A stretch of 9,071 nt of DNA from a virus (Duplodnaviria > Heunggongvirae > Uroviricota > Caudoviricetes). The position numbers and the translations under genes were made by a program. The stretch lies in IMG/VR virus record IMGVR_UViG_2654587570_000008, one strand, 5' to 3'. The notes below the pieces were generated by a model, which was given only the letters and a program-made list of their open reading frames with translations, did no database searches and was not told the origin of the DNA. Positions 1-5,404 of this stretch are shown here, one piece after another (within the stretch, counting starts at the first letter, position 1; the number at the start of each line of letters is the position of its first letter).

Positions 1-888
1 ATGCCACTGCTGGATAAGCTGCGTGAGCAGTACGGGGTCGGACCGGTATGCAGTGAACTGCATATTGCCCCGTCAACGTATTACCACTGTCAGCAACAGC
101 GACATCATCCTGATAAACGCAGTGCCCGTGCTCAGCGCGATGACTGGCTGAAGAGAGAGATACAGCGCGTATACGATGAAAATCATCAGGTGTACGGTGT
201 GCGTAAAGTCTGGCGCCAGTTGTTACGCGAAGGTATCAGGGTGGCCAGATGTACAGTGGCGCGCCTCATGGCGGTTATGGGACTTGCCGGTGTTCTCCGG
301 GGTAAAAAGGTCCGTACTACCGTCAGCCGGAAAGCCGTTTCCGCATGCGACCGCGTAAACCGTCAGTTCGTGGCAGAACGTCCAGACCAGTTGTGGGTGG
401 CTGATTTTACCTGGGTAAGCACATGGCAGGGCTTCGTTTATGTGGCGTTCATCATTGATGTGTTCGCCGGATACATCGTGGGATGGCAGGTCTCATCATC
501 CATGGAAACAACATTCGTGCTGGATGCACTGGAGCAGGCGTTGTGGGCCCGTCGGCCGTCCGGCACAATCCATCACAGTGATAAAGGTTCTCAGTATGTA
601 TCGCTGGCCTACACGCAGCGGCTTAAGGAAGCCGGATTACTGGCATCAACAGGGAGTACTGGCGACTCGTATGACAACGCGATGGCGGAGAGCATCAATG
701 GTCTTTACAAAGCGGAGGTAATACACCGTAAGAGCTGGAAAAACCGTGCAGAAGTGGAACTGGCCACACTCACGTGGGTGGACTGGTATAACAATCGACG
801 ATTGCTGGAAAGGCTGGGCCATACTCCCCCGGCAGAAGCAGAAAAAGCTTATTATGCTTCCATCGGAAACGATGATCTGGCAGCCTGA
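1..888 (+). CDS. IS3-family transposase OrfB (DDE catalytic subunit)
   Basis: 295-aa ORF running from the window edge. The translation shows the IS3-family integrase-core pattern: D in WVADFTW, D in HHSDKGSQY, E in YDNAMAESINGLYK with K seven residues later. orfA and the frameshift site would lie upstream of position 1. Exact IS name not determinable by eye. Confidence 0.85.
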   Translation: MPLLDKLREQYGVGPVCSELHIAPSTYYHCQQQRHHPDKRSARAQRDDWLKREIQRVYDENHQVYGVRKVWRQLLREGIRVARCTVARLMAVMGLAGVLRGKKVRTTVSRKAVSACDRVNRQFVAERPDQLWVADFTWVSTWQGFVYVAFIIDVFAGYIVGWQVSSSMETTFVLDALEQALWARRPSGTIHHSDKGSQYVSLAYTQRLKEAGLLASTGSTGDSYDNAMAESINGLYKAEVIHRKSWKNRAEVELATLTWVDWYNNRRLLERLGHTPPAEAEKAYYASIGNDDLAA

Positions 889-893
889 GTTCA
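1..893 (+). mobile_element. 3' portion of an IS3-family insertion sequence; right terminus is approximate
   Basis: Contains orfB. IS3-family elements end within a few tens of bp of the orfB stop, usually in ...CA; the first ...TTCA after the stop is at 890-893. The true end could be up to about 60 bp further right, and no partner inverted repeat is available in the window. Confidence 0.55.
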
Positions 894-1312
894 CAGATAA
901 AACACTCTCCAGGAAACCCGGGGCGGTTCAGGCCGCCGGTCGTTATATTCGTTCGCATGAAGCCGTTCAGCACATCAGCATCCGCGACCGGCTGAATGAT
1001 TTTATGCAGCAGCACGGCACAGTACTGGCGGCCGCACTGGCACCGGAGCTGATGGGCTACAGTGAGCTGACGGCCATTGCCCGAAACTGTGCCATACAGC
1101 GTGCCACAGATGCCCTGCGTGAAGCCCTCCTGTCCTGGCTTGCGAAGGGTGAAAAAATTAATTATTCCGCACAGGATAGCGACATTTTAACGGCCATTGG
1201 ATTCAGACCTGACGCGGCTTCGGTGGATGACAGCCGTGAAAAATTCACCCCTGCGCAGAACATGATTTTTTCGCGTAAAAGTGCGCAACTGGCATCACGT
1301 CAGTCTGTGTAA
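894..1312 (+). pseudogene. 5'-truncated remnant of an unknown protein-coding gene, apparently interrupted by the IS3-family element
   Basis: The frame is open from 746 to the TAA at 1310-1312, but its first ~140 nt overlap orfB inside the IS in a different frame. No ATG with a Shine-Dalgarno follows the IS end. Composition is host-like (about 50% G+C by eye). Product not recognised. Confidence 0.35.
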
Positions 1313-1342
1313 AATTCCCCGAAAATCCGCCCGTTTTTACTG

Positions 1343-1376
1343 AAAAAAGCCATGCATCGATAAGGTGCATGGCTTT
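1343..1376. terminator. Candidate bidirectional intrinsic terminator
   Basis: Perfect 9-bp stem AGCCATGCA (1348-1356) / TGCATGGCT (1366-1374) with a 9-nt loop. It is preceded by A6 (1343-1348), giving U6 after the hairpin on the minus strand, and followed by TTT on the plus strand. It lies 35 nt after the stop at 1312. Confidence 0.4.
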
Positions 1377-1403
1377 GCATGCGTTTCCCTGCCTCATTTT
1401 CTG

Positions 1404-1431
1404 CAGACCGCGCCATTCCCGGCGCGGTCTG
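1404..1431. other. Perfect 11-bp GC-rich stem-loop with no adjacent T-tract
   Basis: CAGACCGCGCC (1404-1414) / GGCGCGGTCTG (1421-1431) with loop ATTCCC, inside a GC-rich ORF-free spacer. Function unknown (RNA stabiliser or protein-binding palindrome). Confidence 0.3.
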
Positions 1432-1702
1432 AGCGTGTCAGTGCAACTGCATTAAAACCGCCCCGCAAAGCGGGCGGGCGAGGCGGGGAAAGCACTGCGC
1501 GCCCGGTTGGTGCTCGTTACTAATGTTTTTTGCGCCCGAGCACCGTCGGGAAGGGGCTGGGGGGGGATAGGGGAGGTGCCTGACGTCGCGCGGTAATGTT
1601 GGTAAGTGTGCCGCTGATGGCTTCTGAGGGGAGTGGTAAATAGCCGCCTTTCGACGGTGTAGTGGGGAGAGTATTGCTTACAAACGTAATGAAATTGTTT
1701 GA

Positions 1703-1757
1703 GTAGCTAGGCTACTGCATAGGATTATTTTGTTCTGTTAATATATCCGTTAATATA
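1703..1757 (+). promoter_or_regulatory. Putative promoter/operator region of the two-gene cassette
   Basis: AT-rich block 30-80 bp upstream of the start at 1786/1792. Contains the palindrome GTAGC-TAG-GCTAC (1703-1715), two copies of GTTAATATA (1737-1745, 1749-1757) and weak sigma70-like hexamers (TTGTTC 1730-1735, TAATAT 1751-1756). Spacing is suboptimal, so this is a region call, not a mapped promoter. Confidence 0.3.
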
Positions 1758-1785
1758 GATAGATTGATCCAATTGAGTTTAAGGA

Positions 1786-2175
1786 ATGAGTATGTTTCAG
1801 ATATCAGCTGGAGTGTTCTTTGATTTAGATAAAATAGAAAAACACGATGGCACATTTGTTTTTTATTCAAATGTTGATGTGTCTTTCTCGGTGGAAAACA
1901 CCTCCCCTCTTTTTAAAGCAAATAAAATAAGTCATGATGGTATAAACTGTTATGTGGTAAACTATACTCTCCTGACCGAAAAACCAGAACGAATTGAAGC
2001 TGGAGTCGTAGTTAGGGCTGGTGATGAGGATTATAGGCAACAATTTATTTTATTATGGGAATTCTATTTTGATTGTGTGGCTAGAGTAGAAAAAGAATCG
2101 GTTAAAAAATATGTGCATTATCAAATTTTAATAAACATCACTCAAAAATTGCGCTTGAAGTTGCCCCATATTTAG
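1786..2175 (+). CDS. Hypothetical protein, 129 aa (cassette gene A); start may be the ATG at 1792
   Basis: ORF with an AAGGA Shine-Dalgarno at 1781-1785, better spaced for the ATG at 1792. Strongly AT-rich codon usage. Its TAG stop (2173-2175) shares one base with the GTG start of the next ORF. No recognisable motif or transmembrane segment. Confidence 0.6.
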   Translation: MSMFQISAGVFFDLDKIEKHDGTFVFYSNVDVSFSVENTSPLFKANKISHDGINCYVVNYTLLTEKPERIEAGVVVRAGDEDYRQQFILLWEFYFDCVARVEKESVKKYVHYQILINITQKLRLKLPHI

Positions 2176-3494
2176 TGGAGATTAACCGAAGAGTTTCATT
2201 TGATGATGTCTCTGGGTTTTCTGCTTTTATTAAAGATGTAGTGAATCTAAATAGATCTGCCTTTAAATCTTTAATGGCAGCGTTAAAAATAATTAGTGAT
2301 TCAAAAGAATCATTGTCAACCAACTTTGACCTGACTTATTCCATGTTAGTCTATGCCTTGGAGTCTTTGTCTCAAAGAAATGATAACTATAAGTCTGATT
2401 GGGATGACTACGATCAAAAAACCAGAGGTGAATTAGAGTCTGTATTTGAGCATATGCCTGGTGAGGATGTTTGTAAAATTAAATCAATACTTATTGAAGG
2501 CAAACAATTCAGATTACAAAAAAGGTTCAAAGATTTTATACTGAAAAATCTTGAAGAAAATTATTTCAATGAAACAGAGAGATATCCAATCCGCTATAGC
2601 TTCCTTAGTAGAGCTTTAGATAATTTATACAAAATCAGGTCTTCTTTTGTCCATGAGCTTAAGCCACTTGATGCAATGATCTCGAAAGCCTACAATCCTG
2701 TTGGTGATTGTCTGGTTCTTTTTGGCGAACCTCACTTCAGTTACTCTGGATTGCTTCGACTTCTTCGCCATGTGATAATAAATTTTTGCCGTAAAAACTA
2801 CAGTCAAAAAAGAGAGTATGTTAATTGGGTGATGGAAACATCGGGTGTAATGGTTGCAGAGATATCTGCACAATATTGGCTCTGGAATGCAGACGGATTT
2901 ACAGCTAAAAGTATAGCGAAGTGGTTTAGTGAATACCTAAATATGTTAAATTTAGGCGAAGTCACTGATTTGCAGTCTATCATGGACAAAATTGAGATAA
3001 TCTATGACCAATCCAAAAAAGAATATAAAAATGGGTTGTTGTATTTTTATTTCTTATATAACTTAATGCATAATGGAAATAAGGGTGAATGGCTTGAGTT
3101 TGCGAACAAGCGAAGTTCTATACTTGTTTGTGATATATATTGGTATTCATGCTCTCCATATTTATATAAATCATTTACTAATGTTTCAAATGGTATTGCT
3201 GATATAAAAACATTGAGAAACTTTTTGTCTTGTTTTAACGAATATGATAAAAATAAATTTAAGCCAAATCGTTTAAATCTCCCTGCAATGACCGAAGTAA
3301 TTATGTTGGCTTGCGCAGCAAATTCATTCTTCAGAATTGGAATGTATCAAGACTATGTTTTAATGGGCAATAGAGCGATGAGAGAAATTGCTTCAGTAAA
3401 AGATGTATTTTATTATATAAAAGAACGATTAAGTAATTCACAACTTATTGAATTGGACGAGTGCTTGAGATTGTATAGAAAAAAGGGGGGCTAA
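2175..3494 (+). CDS. Hypothetical protein, 439 aa (cassette gene B); possible HEPN-like Rx4H motif, unverified
   Basis: Long uninterrupted ORF in AT-rich DNA. It starts with GTG overlapping the upstream stop (TAGTG) and its stop TAA (3492-3494) overlaps the integrase stop. Contains R-SSFV-H at residues 155-160 (nt 2637-2654). No Walker A motif or transmembrane helix seen. Confidence 0.65.
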   Translation: MEINRRVSFDDVSGFSAFIKDVVNLNRSAFKSLMAALKIISDSKESLSTNFDLTYSMLVYALESLSQRNDNYKSDWDDYDQKTRGELESVFEHMPGEDVCKIKSILIEGKQFRLQKRFKDFILKNLEENYFNETERYPIRYSFLSRALDNLYKIRSSFVHELKPLDAMISKAYNPVGDCLVLFGEPHFSYSGLLRLLRHVIINFCRKNYSQKREYVNWVMETSGVMVAEISAQYWLWNADGFTAKSIAKWFSEYLNMLNLGEVTDLQSIMDKIEIIYDQSKKEYKNGLLYFYFLYNLMHNGNKGEWLEFANKRSSILVCDIYWYSCSPYLYKSFTNVSNGIADIKTLRNFLSCFNEYDKNKFKPNRLNLPAMTEVIMLACAANSFFRIGMYQDYVLMGNRAMREIASVKDVFYYIKERLSNSQLIELDECLRLYRKKGG

Positions 3495-3510
3495 CCCCTT
3501 TTATTTTTAA
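3483..3510. terminator. Candidate bidirectional terminator at the convergent gene ends
   Basis: Short GC stem GGGG (3487-3490) / CCCC (3495-3498) with loop CTAA, flanked by AAAA upstream and TTTTATTTTT downstream, so a U-tract follows the hairpin on both strands. The stem is short, so strength is doubtful. Confidence 0.35.
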
Positions 3511-4687
3511 CGTATTCACCCCACCAATCCATCAATTCAATTCGCTGCACGAGATAAGTAGAACGATTGTATGCTTTTCTAACTTCATTTTTATCACTGT
3601 GGGCTAAGGCAGACTCGATAACATCAGGATTTAATCCAGCTTCATTCATGGCTGTACTTGCTATTGAACGTAATCCATGGGCAACTAATTTTCCGCCAAA
3701 ACCAATACGTTTTAAAGCTGCATTTGCAGTCTGACTGTTCATTGGTTTCTTTGGGTCATTCCGACTCGGAAAAACATATTCACGATGAGCACTAATAGGC
3801 TTCATCACATTAAGAATCTCTAATGCCTGAGATGATAGAGGAATTATGTGTTCCCGTTTAGCCTTCATCCGTTCGGCAGGAATCGTCCAGAGCTTTGCAT
3901 GAAGATCGATTTCTTCCCACCGAGTACTGGAGGCTTCAGAAGGGCGCACAAGAGTCAGGAGTTGCCATTCAATTAGACAGCGAGTCGGGATAGACAGATT
4001 TGACATGACTAAAGAACGCATCAGCTTTGGTAATTCTTCAGGTCGAAGCGTCGGCATGTTTTGTTTTTTTGGCTTTTCGAAGGCCATGCCAACACCTGAT
4101 GCTGGGTTTGCATCAATCAAGCCAGTGTTAACCGCATAAATCATTATTTCGTTAATGCGTTGCACCAGACGACGTACAGTCTCTAATGCCCCACGAGCTT
4201 TGACTGGCTCAAGTGCTTCGACCAATGTTCTAGCTTTGATCTGCTGAACGGGCATCTCACCAACGGCGGGGAATACATCTTTTTCCAATGAGCGCCAAAT
4301 ATCTTTTGCATAATCAGGGGTAACACTTTTGCTTTTGAGCTGAAACCAATTAGCGGCGACCGTCGAGAAAATACTGTCCTGTGCGATTTGCTGCTGTTCC
4401 TCTGCAATTTCAGCTTGAATTTGCGGGTCAATTCCGTTGGCTAACAAGGAAAGGTAATCCGCTCTTAAGCGTCGGGCGTCAGCAAGTGAAAGGGCTGGGA
4501 AGGCTCCTAGCCCCATCATTGTCCGTTGCTTTGTTGCCGGACGTTGATAACGGAAACGCCATAACTTCTTACCGTTCGTTTTAACGAGTAGAAAAAGACC
4601 ATCGCCATCATGCAACGTTAGATCCTTTTCTAACGCTTTAGCGCGCAGTACTTCTGTGTTGGTCAGGGGGCGTGTCGTTCTTGCCAA
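3491..4687 (-). CDS. intA: P4-type (IntA-like) tyrosine integrase, site-specific recombinase
   Basis: 398-aa ORF. The N-terminus MARTTRPLT...DGDGLFLLV...KLWRFRY is typical of P4-family integrases, and the C-terminal catalytic region carries AHGLRSIAST (H-x-x-R) and a terminal Tyr in NRSTYL. It sits directly downstream of a tmRNA 3'-end att core, as intA does next to ssrA in E. coli K-12 CP4-57. Start codon is TTG (4685-4687) with an AAGGAG Shine-Dalgarno 8 nt upstream. Confidence 0.9.
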   Translation of the reverse strand: MARTTRPLTNTEVLRAKALEKDLTLHDGDGLFLLVKTNGKKLWRFRYQRPATKQRTMMGLGAFPALSLADARRLRADYLSLLANGIDPQIQAEIAEEQQQIAQDSIFSTVAANWFQLKSKSVTPDYAKDIWRSLEKDVFPAVGEMPVQQIKARTLVEALEPVKARGALETVRRLVQRINEIMIYAVNTGLIDANPASGVGMAFEKPKKQNMPTLRPEELPKLMRSLVMSNLSIPTRCLIEWQLLTLVRPSEASSTRWEEIDLHAKLWTIPAERMKAKREHIIPLSSQALEILNVMKPISAHREYVFPSRNDPKKPMNSQTANAALKRIGFGGKLVAHGLRSIASTAMNEAGLNPDVIESALAHSDKNEVRKAYNRSTYLVQRIELMDWWGEYVKNKRG

Positions 4688-4706
4688 TTTGGCCGCTCCT
4701 TCATGA

Positions 4707-4760
4707 ATTGGTATACGCGTTTAGGTATACATCCTACCGTATACCTAAACGTATACCAAT
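4707..4760 (-). promoter_or_regulatory. Long near-perfect inverted repeat upstream of the integrase start (candidate operator or integrase-regulatory site)
   Basis: Left arm ATTGGTATACGCGTTTAGGTATAC (4707-4730) and right arm GTATACCTAAACGTATACCAAT (4739-4760) are reverse complements apart from a 2-nt indel. They carry four GTATAC palindromic cores and lie about 20 bp upstream of the integrase Shine-Dalgarno. Confidence 0.4.
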
Positions 4761-4802
4761 AATCACTGGATTTAGCTGGATATCCTCGGACAACGGTAGA
4801 CA

Positions 4803-4838
4803 CAAAAAAGCCCGCAGAGCTTGTGCTATGCGGGCTTT
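4803..4838 (-). terminator. Intrinsic terminator on the minus strand, downstream of the tmRNA-end remnant
   Basis: Perfect 8-bp stem AGCCCGCA (4809-4816) / TGCGGGCT (4829-4836) with a 12-nt loop. On the minus strand the hairpin is followed by U6 (complement of A 4804-4809). Confidence 0.5.
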
Positions 4839-4871
4839 CAGGATTTCTCCGGACGTATCCGGAAGAGCAAG

Positions 4872-4907
4872 TGGTGGAGCTGGCGGGAGTTGAACCCGTG
4901 TCTGAAA
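4872..4907 (-). other. Attachment-site remnant: 3'-terminal ~36 nt of a tmRNA (ssrA) gene, without the gene body
   Basis: The reverse complement of 4872-4898 reads CGGGTTCAACTCCCGCCAGCTCCACCA, the T-arm/acceptor 3' end of E. coli tmRNA as I recall it. Similarity continues with 2 mismatches to about 4907 and is then lost in AT-rich DNA, so this is a junction core, not an intact gene. Confidence 0.7.
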
Positions 4908-4936
4908 AATATTAACCTGTTGTTTTAATTATATAT

Positions 4937-5404
4937 TTATCTGAACATGGCGTTTGCGGCGCTTTTGCGTATCTTCTCTAGACCTTTTGTAGTCCATTTC
5001 TCTGGTACAGGTGTAAACCGTAGTGCAAAATCTGCCTCCATATTATCACCACTGAAACGTGCCACTCCACGTTCCAATTTTGTTTGCCAAGTGACTTTTT
5101 TAGTTTTACCCTCTATATCTTGATATTCAATAATTAATTTTGGACCAGTGAATGATGAAGAACCGACTAATTTAAGTCTATGTGAAAGATATGCTATATT
5201 CAATAGAATATCAATTGCCGCGGTTGGTACAAAAATGTTTTTTGACTTCTTATCTATACTATATGGTAACGAAAAATCAATATCGTAAGGTGTCGATAAA
5301 GTATTGTACATATATACTTTTCTTTCTTTTATTATTTTGAATATTCCATACTGGGAGTCGGTTGTAAAAGATTTATCTTCTTTTTTGAATTTTTTCGAAA
5401 ACAA
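4937..5404 (-). CDS. Hypothetical protein, 155 aa; probably the C-terminal part of a frameshifted membrane-anchored protein gene
   Basis: AT-rich ORF with no ATG (first start candidate is TTG at 5402-5404), lying 14 nt downstream of the preceding ORF in the -1 frame. No recognised domain. Confidence 0.45.
   Translation of the reverse strand: MFSKKFKKEDKSFTTDSQYGIFKIIKERKVYMYNTLSTPYDIDFSLPYSIDKKSKNIFVPTAAIDILLNIAYLSHRLKLVGSSSFTGPKLIIEYQDIEGKTKKVTWQTKLERGVARFSGDNMEADFALRFTPVPEKWTTKGLEKIRKSAANAMFR

Follow-up and report, generated by a model that had tools for sequence, protein, structure and literature searches.

The DNA analysed in this study, referred to throughout as the window, is a stretch of 9,071 bp that contains part of a P4-like satellite inserted at a 3' fragment of ssrA, and it is this satellite that carries the palindrome described here. 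A P4-type tyrosine integrase gene, int, which encodes 398 aa from a TTG start, was identified by domain matches on the minus strand at 3491-4687, and its Shine-Dalgarno sequence AAGGAG was recognized on the same strand at 4696-4701 from the sequence and from the alignment of relatives. Further upstream in the sense of int lie the palindrome (4707-4760), an element-borne, intrinsic-terminator-like hairpin with a T-run that was located by hairpin and terminator scans (4801-4838, minus strand), and the ssrA 3'-end fragment (4872-4900, minus strand), which includes the att core TTCAACTCCCGCCAGC (4879-4894) and was delimited by a partial Rfam match and by the junction with a lambdoid prophage. Where the element directly adjoins ssrA, the terminator at 4801-4838 acts as the ssrA terminator. 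The original prediction spoke of ssrA-intA intergenic regions, to which our annotation brings a correction: ARAGORN detected no tmRNA gene in the window and the Rfam match to ssrA is partial, covering the last ~29 nt (4872-4900), so that the window holds a 3' fragment of ssrA alone. The real ssrA is separated from the satellite by the lambdoid prophage, whose end, with an integrase gene of its own (5757-6929, Arm-DNA-bind_2), lies to the right of 4911, and the ssrA 3' fragment (4872-4911) is the junction of this tandem array. Such a tandem arrangement of prophage and satellite is present in 5 of 5426 E. coli genomes, and GPEC1035 is among the strains that have it.

To the left of int there are two ORFs, followed by psu, which is cut by an IS3-family element. 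This insertion occupies window positions 1-927 and includes an IS1203-like transposase and an ALIL frameshift pseudoknot at 1-72. With psu interrupted by the IS, this copy of the satellite is damaged, and the window does not reach its far end, where the P-arm sites are. The two ORFs, of 129 aa and 439 aa (1786-3494, plus strand), are one uninterrupted 567-aa ORF in E. coli ATCC 8739; in the window, the loss of 1 nt from an A-run near 2103 has divided this cargo ORF, which sits in the psu-int cargo hotspot of P4-like satellites. PADLOC matches the 439-aa part weakly to ApeA (E = 3.6e-6), and Pfam gives no match for it. E. coli ATCC 8739 is 99.8% identical to the window over 928-4700 and 100% identical over 4560-4870. 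Its satellite is intact, ~10.5 kb long and directly beside a complete ssrA, and it displays the P4 gene order of primase, an Icd-like gene, an HTH (Vis-like) gene, a gene in the sid position (annotated hypothetical), delta, psu, cargo and int.

Sequence organization of the palindrome

Inverted-repeat analysis of the window confirms the near-perfect palindrome of 54 bp, with arms of 24 and 22 nt, that had been noticed at this place. Positions 4707-4730 (ATTGGTATACGCGTTTAGGTATAC) pair with 4739-4760 (GTATACCTAAACGTATACCAAT), and the arms are reverse complements of each other with a 2-nt CG indel as the sole exception. The palindrome results from two inverted copies of a 22-bp module, ATTGGTATACGnTTAGGTATAC, with 8 bp between them, and in the sense of int it reads ATTGGTATACGTTTAGGTATAC, then the 8 bp, then the inverted copy of the same module. 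The four cores reported within it prove to be four copies of GGTATAC, at 4710 and 4724 on the plus strand and at 4739 and 4751 on the minus strand, and the motif occurs nowhere else in the window, where 0.51 copies are expected.

These units are spaced by 12 and 14 bp and half of them are inverted. Site 1 (ATTGGTATAC; 4751-4760, minus strand) is the direct unit farthest from int and overlaps the predicted -35 element. Site 2 (TTTAGGTATAC; 4739-4749, minus strand), recognized from the sequence and the alignment of relatives, is also direct and follows 12 bp after site 1. Site 3 (GGTATAC; 4724-4730, plus strand) has the opposite orientation to sites 1 and 2, overlaps the predicted transcription start and is the most variable unit in relatives, and site 4 (ATTGGTATAC; 4707-4716, plus strand), likewise inverted, is nearest to the Shine-Dalgarno sequence. 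Both site 1 and site 4 are near invariant within each motif class. On the basis of this anatomy and of its retention in diverged elements, the palindrome as a whole (4707-4760) is annotated as a putative P' arm-type site cluster on the minus strand. The original prediction placed it upstream of a P4-type integrase, which holds in the sense of the gene but not in window coordinates, int being on the minus strand; the distance of ~20 bp to the Shine-Dalgarno sequence needs correction, since the palindrome ends 5 bp from AAGGAG (4701-4696) and 19 bp from the start codon.

A matching site pair at the far end and comparison with known attachment regions

The argument for two arms rests on the near-identical element of ATCC 8739, because the far end of the window's own copy is cut off by the IS in psu. 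Apart from the palindrome, ATCC 8739 has GGTATAC at only two places: once in host DNA upstream of ssrA, and as a tandem pair at the opposite end of the satellite. This far-end pair, GTATACCTAATCGTATACCAAT (locus L002, 1467-1488), lies 54 bp from an imperfect copy of the ssrA core, TTCAAACTCCGCCAGC. The ATCC 8739 element has three copies of the 22-bp module, two inverted beside int and one across the core. The same motif is present at both ends of the element also in GPEC1035, at loci L003-L005 and at 10 further loci, and this arm motif is distinct from the core-type sequence TTCAACTCCCGCCAGC.

The study named in connection with the attP arm repeats of P4 is reportedly that of Pierson and Kahn in 1987. 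The GenBank record of P4 (NC_001609) annotates 'attP arm sequence repeat' features on both sides of a 20-bp core, in the order of two direct repeats (TTGGGGGCAT) and one inverted repeat at the int start, then the core, then two tandem repeats. The element studied here resembles P4 in its integrase family, in having two direct units spaced by 12 bp and, after them, inverted unit(s) immediately before or across the int start, in having two tandem units 54-56 bp past the core with an A/T-rich spacer on that side, and in the 10-bp-phased TCC(G/A) repeats between the core and the int-side units. It differs from P4 in the motif, which is TGCCCCCA in P4 and GGTATAC in the window, in the number of int-side units, with three in P4 against four here that form a 2+2, near-perfect palindrome, and in the target, which is leuX in P4 and ssrA here, the two integrases being 37% identical. 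Arm repeats of this kind are thus known already from the P4 record; the present element has a lineage-specific motif and a 2+2 layout in place of 2+1.

A similar comparison can be made with CP4-57, a P4-like cryptic prophage linked to ssrA in E. coli K-12, which has two direct AGGCCCA units 12 bp apart and an inverted TGGGCCT before the intA Shine-Dalgarno sequence, and two tandem GGACCA units at its far end. CP4-57 has the same attB (the ssrA 3' end), a 60% identical integrase, the same geometry and a sigma-70-like promoter (TTGATA, 17 nt, TATTGT) in the same relative place. It differs in its AGGCCCA motif with two direct units and one inverted unit, and in being a 22-kb island rather than a P4-like satellite of roughly 10.5 kb. 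The last far-side unit is 54 bp from the core in ATCC 8739, 55 bp in K-12 and 56 bp in P4, and the first int-side unit is 119 bp from the core in the window, 141 bp in K-12 and 112 bp in P4. Judged by these distances, the geometry is conserved across the window and ATCC 8739, K-12 and P4, while the motif is not. In lambda, the arm sites P'1-P'3 are all direct repeats and int is not transcribed from inside attP; the palindrome, in contrast to the lambda P' sites, includes inverted units. What is shared with lambda is a heterobivalent integrase whose N-terminal domain reads arm sites that are distinct from the core (PMC2951348).

Motif classes and the arm-binding domain of the integrase

A survey of relatives, with one genome per species, yielded 79 loci whose integrases are 91-55% identical to that of the window, all from Enterobacterales save a few oddly labelled assemblies. 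The same overall architecture is seen across different motif classes at these loci. Classes GGTATAC, GGTACAC and GGCCTAC each have two direct and two inverted units, class GGTACC has five copies, and classes AGGCCCA, AGGCACC and AGGCATA mostly have two direct units and one inverted unit. Sites 1, 2 and 4 hardly vary among members of one class, and between classes all sites switch in concert. Wherever the far end fell in the fetched DNA (L002-L005 and 10 other loci), its motif class is that of the int side, as in 88COLEC of the GGTACAC class, where both ends, about 7 kb apart, are of the same class; at 6 of the 10 far-end loci a core-like sequence follows ~80 nt downstream of the pair. Far-end copies were sought by 6-mer within 10-kb flanks, a span that most elements about equal or exceed in length, and at most of the 79 loci this search detected no far end.

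The least conserved unit is site 3 (window 4724-4730; L007 20125; alignment A4 columns 78-84), which reads GTATGCC, GTAGGCC, GTGGTCC and others in relatives. GPEC1035, which has the tandem arrangement of the window, has lost the exact match at this site. Perhaps not all four sites are functional, since site 3 is so poorly conserved. On this comparison, the layouts grade continuously from the perfect palindrome of the window, at one extreme, toward the 2+1 arrangement of P4.

The integrase itself consists of Arm-DNA-bind_3, Phage_int_M and Phage_integrase domains and shares 60% identity with K-12 IntA and 37% with P4 Int. Its Arm-DNA-bind_3 domain (PF13356, aa 8-91, E = 9.6e-23) is presumed to be the reader of the GGTATAC sites. 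When 14 integrases of the GGTATAC class were compared with 10 of the GGTACAC class, 17 alignment columns separated the classes completely, and 14 of these fell within residues 1-95, the arm-binding domain. Identity in this N-terminal domain (aa 1-95) is 64.8% between classes against 77.4% within the GGTATAC class, the corresponding values being 78.7% against 79.2% for the central domain and 80.9% against 81.0% for the catalytic domain, so that the drop between classes is confined to the N-terminal domain. Proteins of the GGTACAC class are mostly 79-83% identical to the integrase of the window, and those of the GGTATAC class from Dickeya, Rahnella and Yersinia are 72-77% identical to it. Because the GGTACAC-class proteins are overall the closer ones, the N-terminal signal is not simple phylogenetic distance. 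The arm motif and the N-terminal domain of the integrase switch together in lineages that use the same ssrA core, and this co-variation is the pattern expected if the N-terminal domain reads the units.

A predicted int promoter within the site cluster

The int gene adjoins the tmRNA gene in the same orientation and attL thus falls in the int upstream region, where there is little space for a promoter between the terminator (4801-4838) and the Shine-Dalgarno sequence. A predicted -35 element, TTGGTA (4754-4759, minus strand), and a predicted -10 element, TAGGAT (4731-4736, minus strand), the latter in the centre of the dyad, are separated by 17 nt and match 8 of 12 consensus positions. A promoter scan of 4600-4960 with a threshold of 9/12 returned no site, and for this reason the promoter argument rests on a weaker scoring across relatives, in which 75 upstream regions were compared. 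In 65 of these 75 loci the top-scoring sigma-70-like site falls at one and the same relative position, with the -10 element between the direct and the inverted units and a spacer of always 17 nt. Relatives carry a -10 hexamer of the form TAnnnT (TATAAT, TATACT, TAAGAT, TATCAT, TATTGT), in which T1, A2 and T6 are kept and positions 3-5 vary. We infer that TTGGTA-17 nt-TAGGAT is the only plausible int promoter, and the transcription start is predicted near 4724, within the palindrome; for intA of K-12 the corresponding prediction is about position 2,756,133 of NC_000913.3. Bound integrase probably represses its own promoter, since the -10-like hexamer sits in the 8-bp centre, 17 nt after TTGGTA.

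An autoregulated int promoter agrees with what Piazzolla et al. 2006, a study cited in PMC2951348 and PMC7286903, reportedly state for P4 in their title. A further parallel is the attL/intS region of KplE1 (Panis et al. 2010, PMC2951348), where the intS promoter overlaps attL and negative autoregulation has been shown experimentally; its authors predicted autoregulated, attL-overlapping promoters for most tRNA-linked integrases (PMC2951348). There, too, the integrase gene is beside a tRNA-type gene and co-oriented with it, and arm-type and excisionase sites overlap the int promoter (PMC2951348). KplE1 differs in its integrase lineage, in its TAAA-containing P' sites and in having no dyad arrangement. 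The original prediction had offered an operator for a regulator of int expression as one option. A conserved sigma-70-like promoter inside the site cluster, as predicted in silico, is compatible with this option. The operator option and the integrase-site option are probably one thing, because the predicted promoter lies inside the site cluster and the regulator would be Int.

Alternative explanations

That the palindrome arose by chance, or persists as a neutral relic without function, is extremely improbable. Selection on this damaged copy of the element may be relaxed, given the IS inserted in psu and the frameshift in the cargo gene; yet GTATAC occurs six times in the window against 1.1 expected, a number reached in none of 200 shuffles, and no exact inverted repeat of the window has a longer arm than the 13-nt inner arm of the palindrome, where the best arm in 60 dinucleotide-preserving shuffles measured 11 nt. 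These values exceed all shuffles, and the palindrome is kept from E. coli to Yersinia, Dickeya and Pantoea whereas the flanking spacers vary, so that the original claim that such a dyad is unlikely to be neutral stands and the conservation data effectively refute a neutral relic already. More can be said for an RNA stem-loop in the int 5' leader that would attenuate or stabilize read-through from ssrA or from a promoter upstream of 4760, although we hold it to be improbable. The RNA fold of 4680-4875 is strong (-80.7 kcal/mol, z = -7.0), with the palindrome forming a long hairpin in it; 24 relatives retain the dyad symmetry in 88.6% of cells, with 9 pairs changed on both sides; and in ICEKp1 stem-loops in the int 5' UTR attenuate tRNA-int read-through (PMC13023037). 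However, each seemingly compensatory change is one substitution that recurs in every copy, also in the direct repeats and in the far-end pair, which is kilobases away, a uniformity that pairing does not need, and we judge the covariation count to be non-diagnostic because symmetric protein sites yield the same pattern. Classes with 2+1 units would form a short stem only, with a loop of about 25 nt, and the terminator with its T-run stands between ssrA, which in the window is only a fragment, and the palindrome. What further leads us to disfavour the RNA hairpin that had been proposed for the int leader is that a transcription start within the palindrome is predicted from the conserved -10-like hexamer in the loop, that the palindrome hairpin is not followed by a U-tract, that relatives often have a broken inner stem (site 3), and that the far-end copies are unexplained by an RNA model. 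ICEKp1 is alike in having a dyad-symmetric sequence between a tRNA-type gene and the neighbouring integrase gene (PMC13023037), and differs in that the function there is at the RNA level on read-through transcripts, whereas here a terminator precedes the palindrome and a promoter is apparently inside it. An attenuator of the ICEKp1 type was considered as a candidate and rejected, as motif-independent pairing and a U-tract are not what is found, the stem being broken and the changes being common to the direct and far-end copies.

Another possibility is that the palindrome serves a protein other than Int, either an excisionase of the Vis/AlpA type or a host GntR-type repressor such as UxuR/ExuR, for which it would be the operator; this we regard as very improbable. 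The late-promoter region of the satellite, on which Vis acts in P4, has no GGTATAC, and the concerted switching of the motif with the integrase N-terminal domain (GGTACAC, GGCCTAC, AGGCCCA and others) is not a host-repressor pattern. Elsewhere in the attachment region there are better candidates for excisionase sites, which we tentatively regard as Vis/AlpA-type boxes: one with three TCC(G/A) repeats (4790, 4780, 4770) at 4767-4790 and a second with three TCCnGA repeats (4863, 4853, 4843) at 4838-4863, both on the minus strand and both with exact 10-bp phasing. P4 has both of these 10-bp-phased TCC(G/A) sets between its core and its arm sites. Two Vis boxes between int and the core of P4 were reportedly described by Cali et al. 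in 2004. Footprints of P4 Vis in attP, between int and the core (PMC2603039), would favour an excisionase operator at this place, but excisionase sites are direct repeats one helix turn apart (PMC7498355), a description that the TCC(G/A) repeats adjacent to the palindrome fit, whereas the units of the palindrome are 12 or 14 bp apart and partly inverted. An AlpA/Vis-type regulator is more likely to use the TCC(G/A) repeats than the palindrome. At the late-promoter region of the satellite, TCC(G/A)G-type motifs show no clear enrichment, with one phased pair in ATCC 8739. As for a host repressor, ATTGGTATAC and GTATACCAAT (4707-4716 and 4751-4760) each match 10 nt of the UxuR operator AAATTGGTATACCAATTT (PMC8092373). 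A UxuR/ExuR operator was nevertheless rejected as a candidate, for the contiguous palindrome AAATTGGTATACCAATTT is absent and there are just separated, half-site-like ends; the half-site resemblance is probably coincidental. The UxuR operator was the only match when the literature was searched as text for the arm motif.

Interpretation of the palindrome as a probable set of integrase arm sites

Taken together with the comparisons above, we consider it highly probable that the palindrome is the int-proximal (P') arm-site set of an ssrA-targeting P4-like satellite, a set that would be read by the integrase and would cover the int promoter. Of the options raised in the original prediction, that of integrase binding sites belonging to the att region is the one strongly supported, by four observations, namely the third module at the far end, the geometry matching that of P4, the concerted switching of the sites and the co-variation with the integrase N-terminal domain. 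Physical binding of Int, the position of the promoter and its repression are steps of the arm-site reading that we infer from these patterns. The element's own integrase would recognize each GGTATAC unit through its N-terminal arm-binding domain, and the four P' units together with the two tandem units across the core, in excised attP or in attR, would let the integrase bridge arm and core DNA and in this way build the recombination complex. Integrase on the sites would also cover the -35 element, the spacer and the start region, and bound integrase may thereby block RNA polymerase and hold its own synthesis low. No new mechanism is revealed by this arrangement, which is a well-known one and does not amount to a new kind of element.

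It seems rather unlikely that the switching of arm classes is a selected 'orthogonality code' or, in a related reading, that the 2+2 dyad is tuned mainly as an autoregulatory operator. If the former were true, several elements could stand in tandem at one attB without cross-excision, which would be avoided because the junctions between neighbours carry arms of two classes; the internal junction of the Pantoea contig described below is an example of such a pairing. If the latter were true, the perfect dyad, which is centred on the predicted -10 element, would act chiefly in autoregulation and the variable site 3 would set the expression level.

For the arm-site reading that we favour, the analysis offers a testable map of the attachment region of an ssrA-targeting P4-like satellite, on which are placed the core, both candidate excisionase boxes, the terminator, the four P' sites together with the predicted promoter inside them, and the far-end P pair. 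Satellites of this type are common and carry anti-phage defence cargo. The motif classes and the N-terminal variants amount to a natural series of arm specificities on one core, which could guide integrase engineering and the prediction of tandem elements that are able to excise independently.

Some minor observations were made outside the satellite of the window. A contig of a Pantoea MAG (DKJK01000011.1; L086 9724-9985, the contig being shared with L013) holds two tandem P4-like elements of different arm classes, and their internal junction has, in this order, a P-arm pair of the GGTATAC class, a core, a terminator and a P' cluster of the GGTACAC class that lacks one direct unit. Inside the lambdoid prophage of the window there is a sub-threshold Rfam match to the STnc100 sRNA at 8469-8683 on the minus strand (42.1 bits against a gathering score of 47; E = 1.3e-6).
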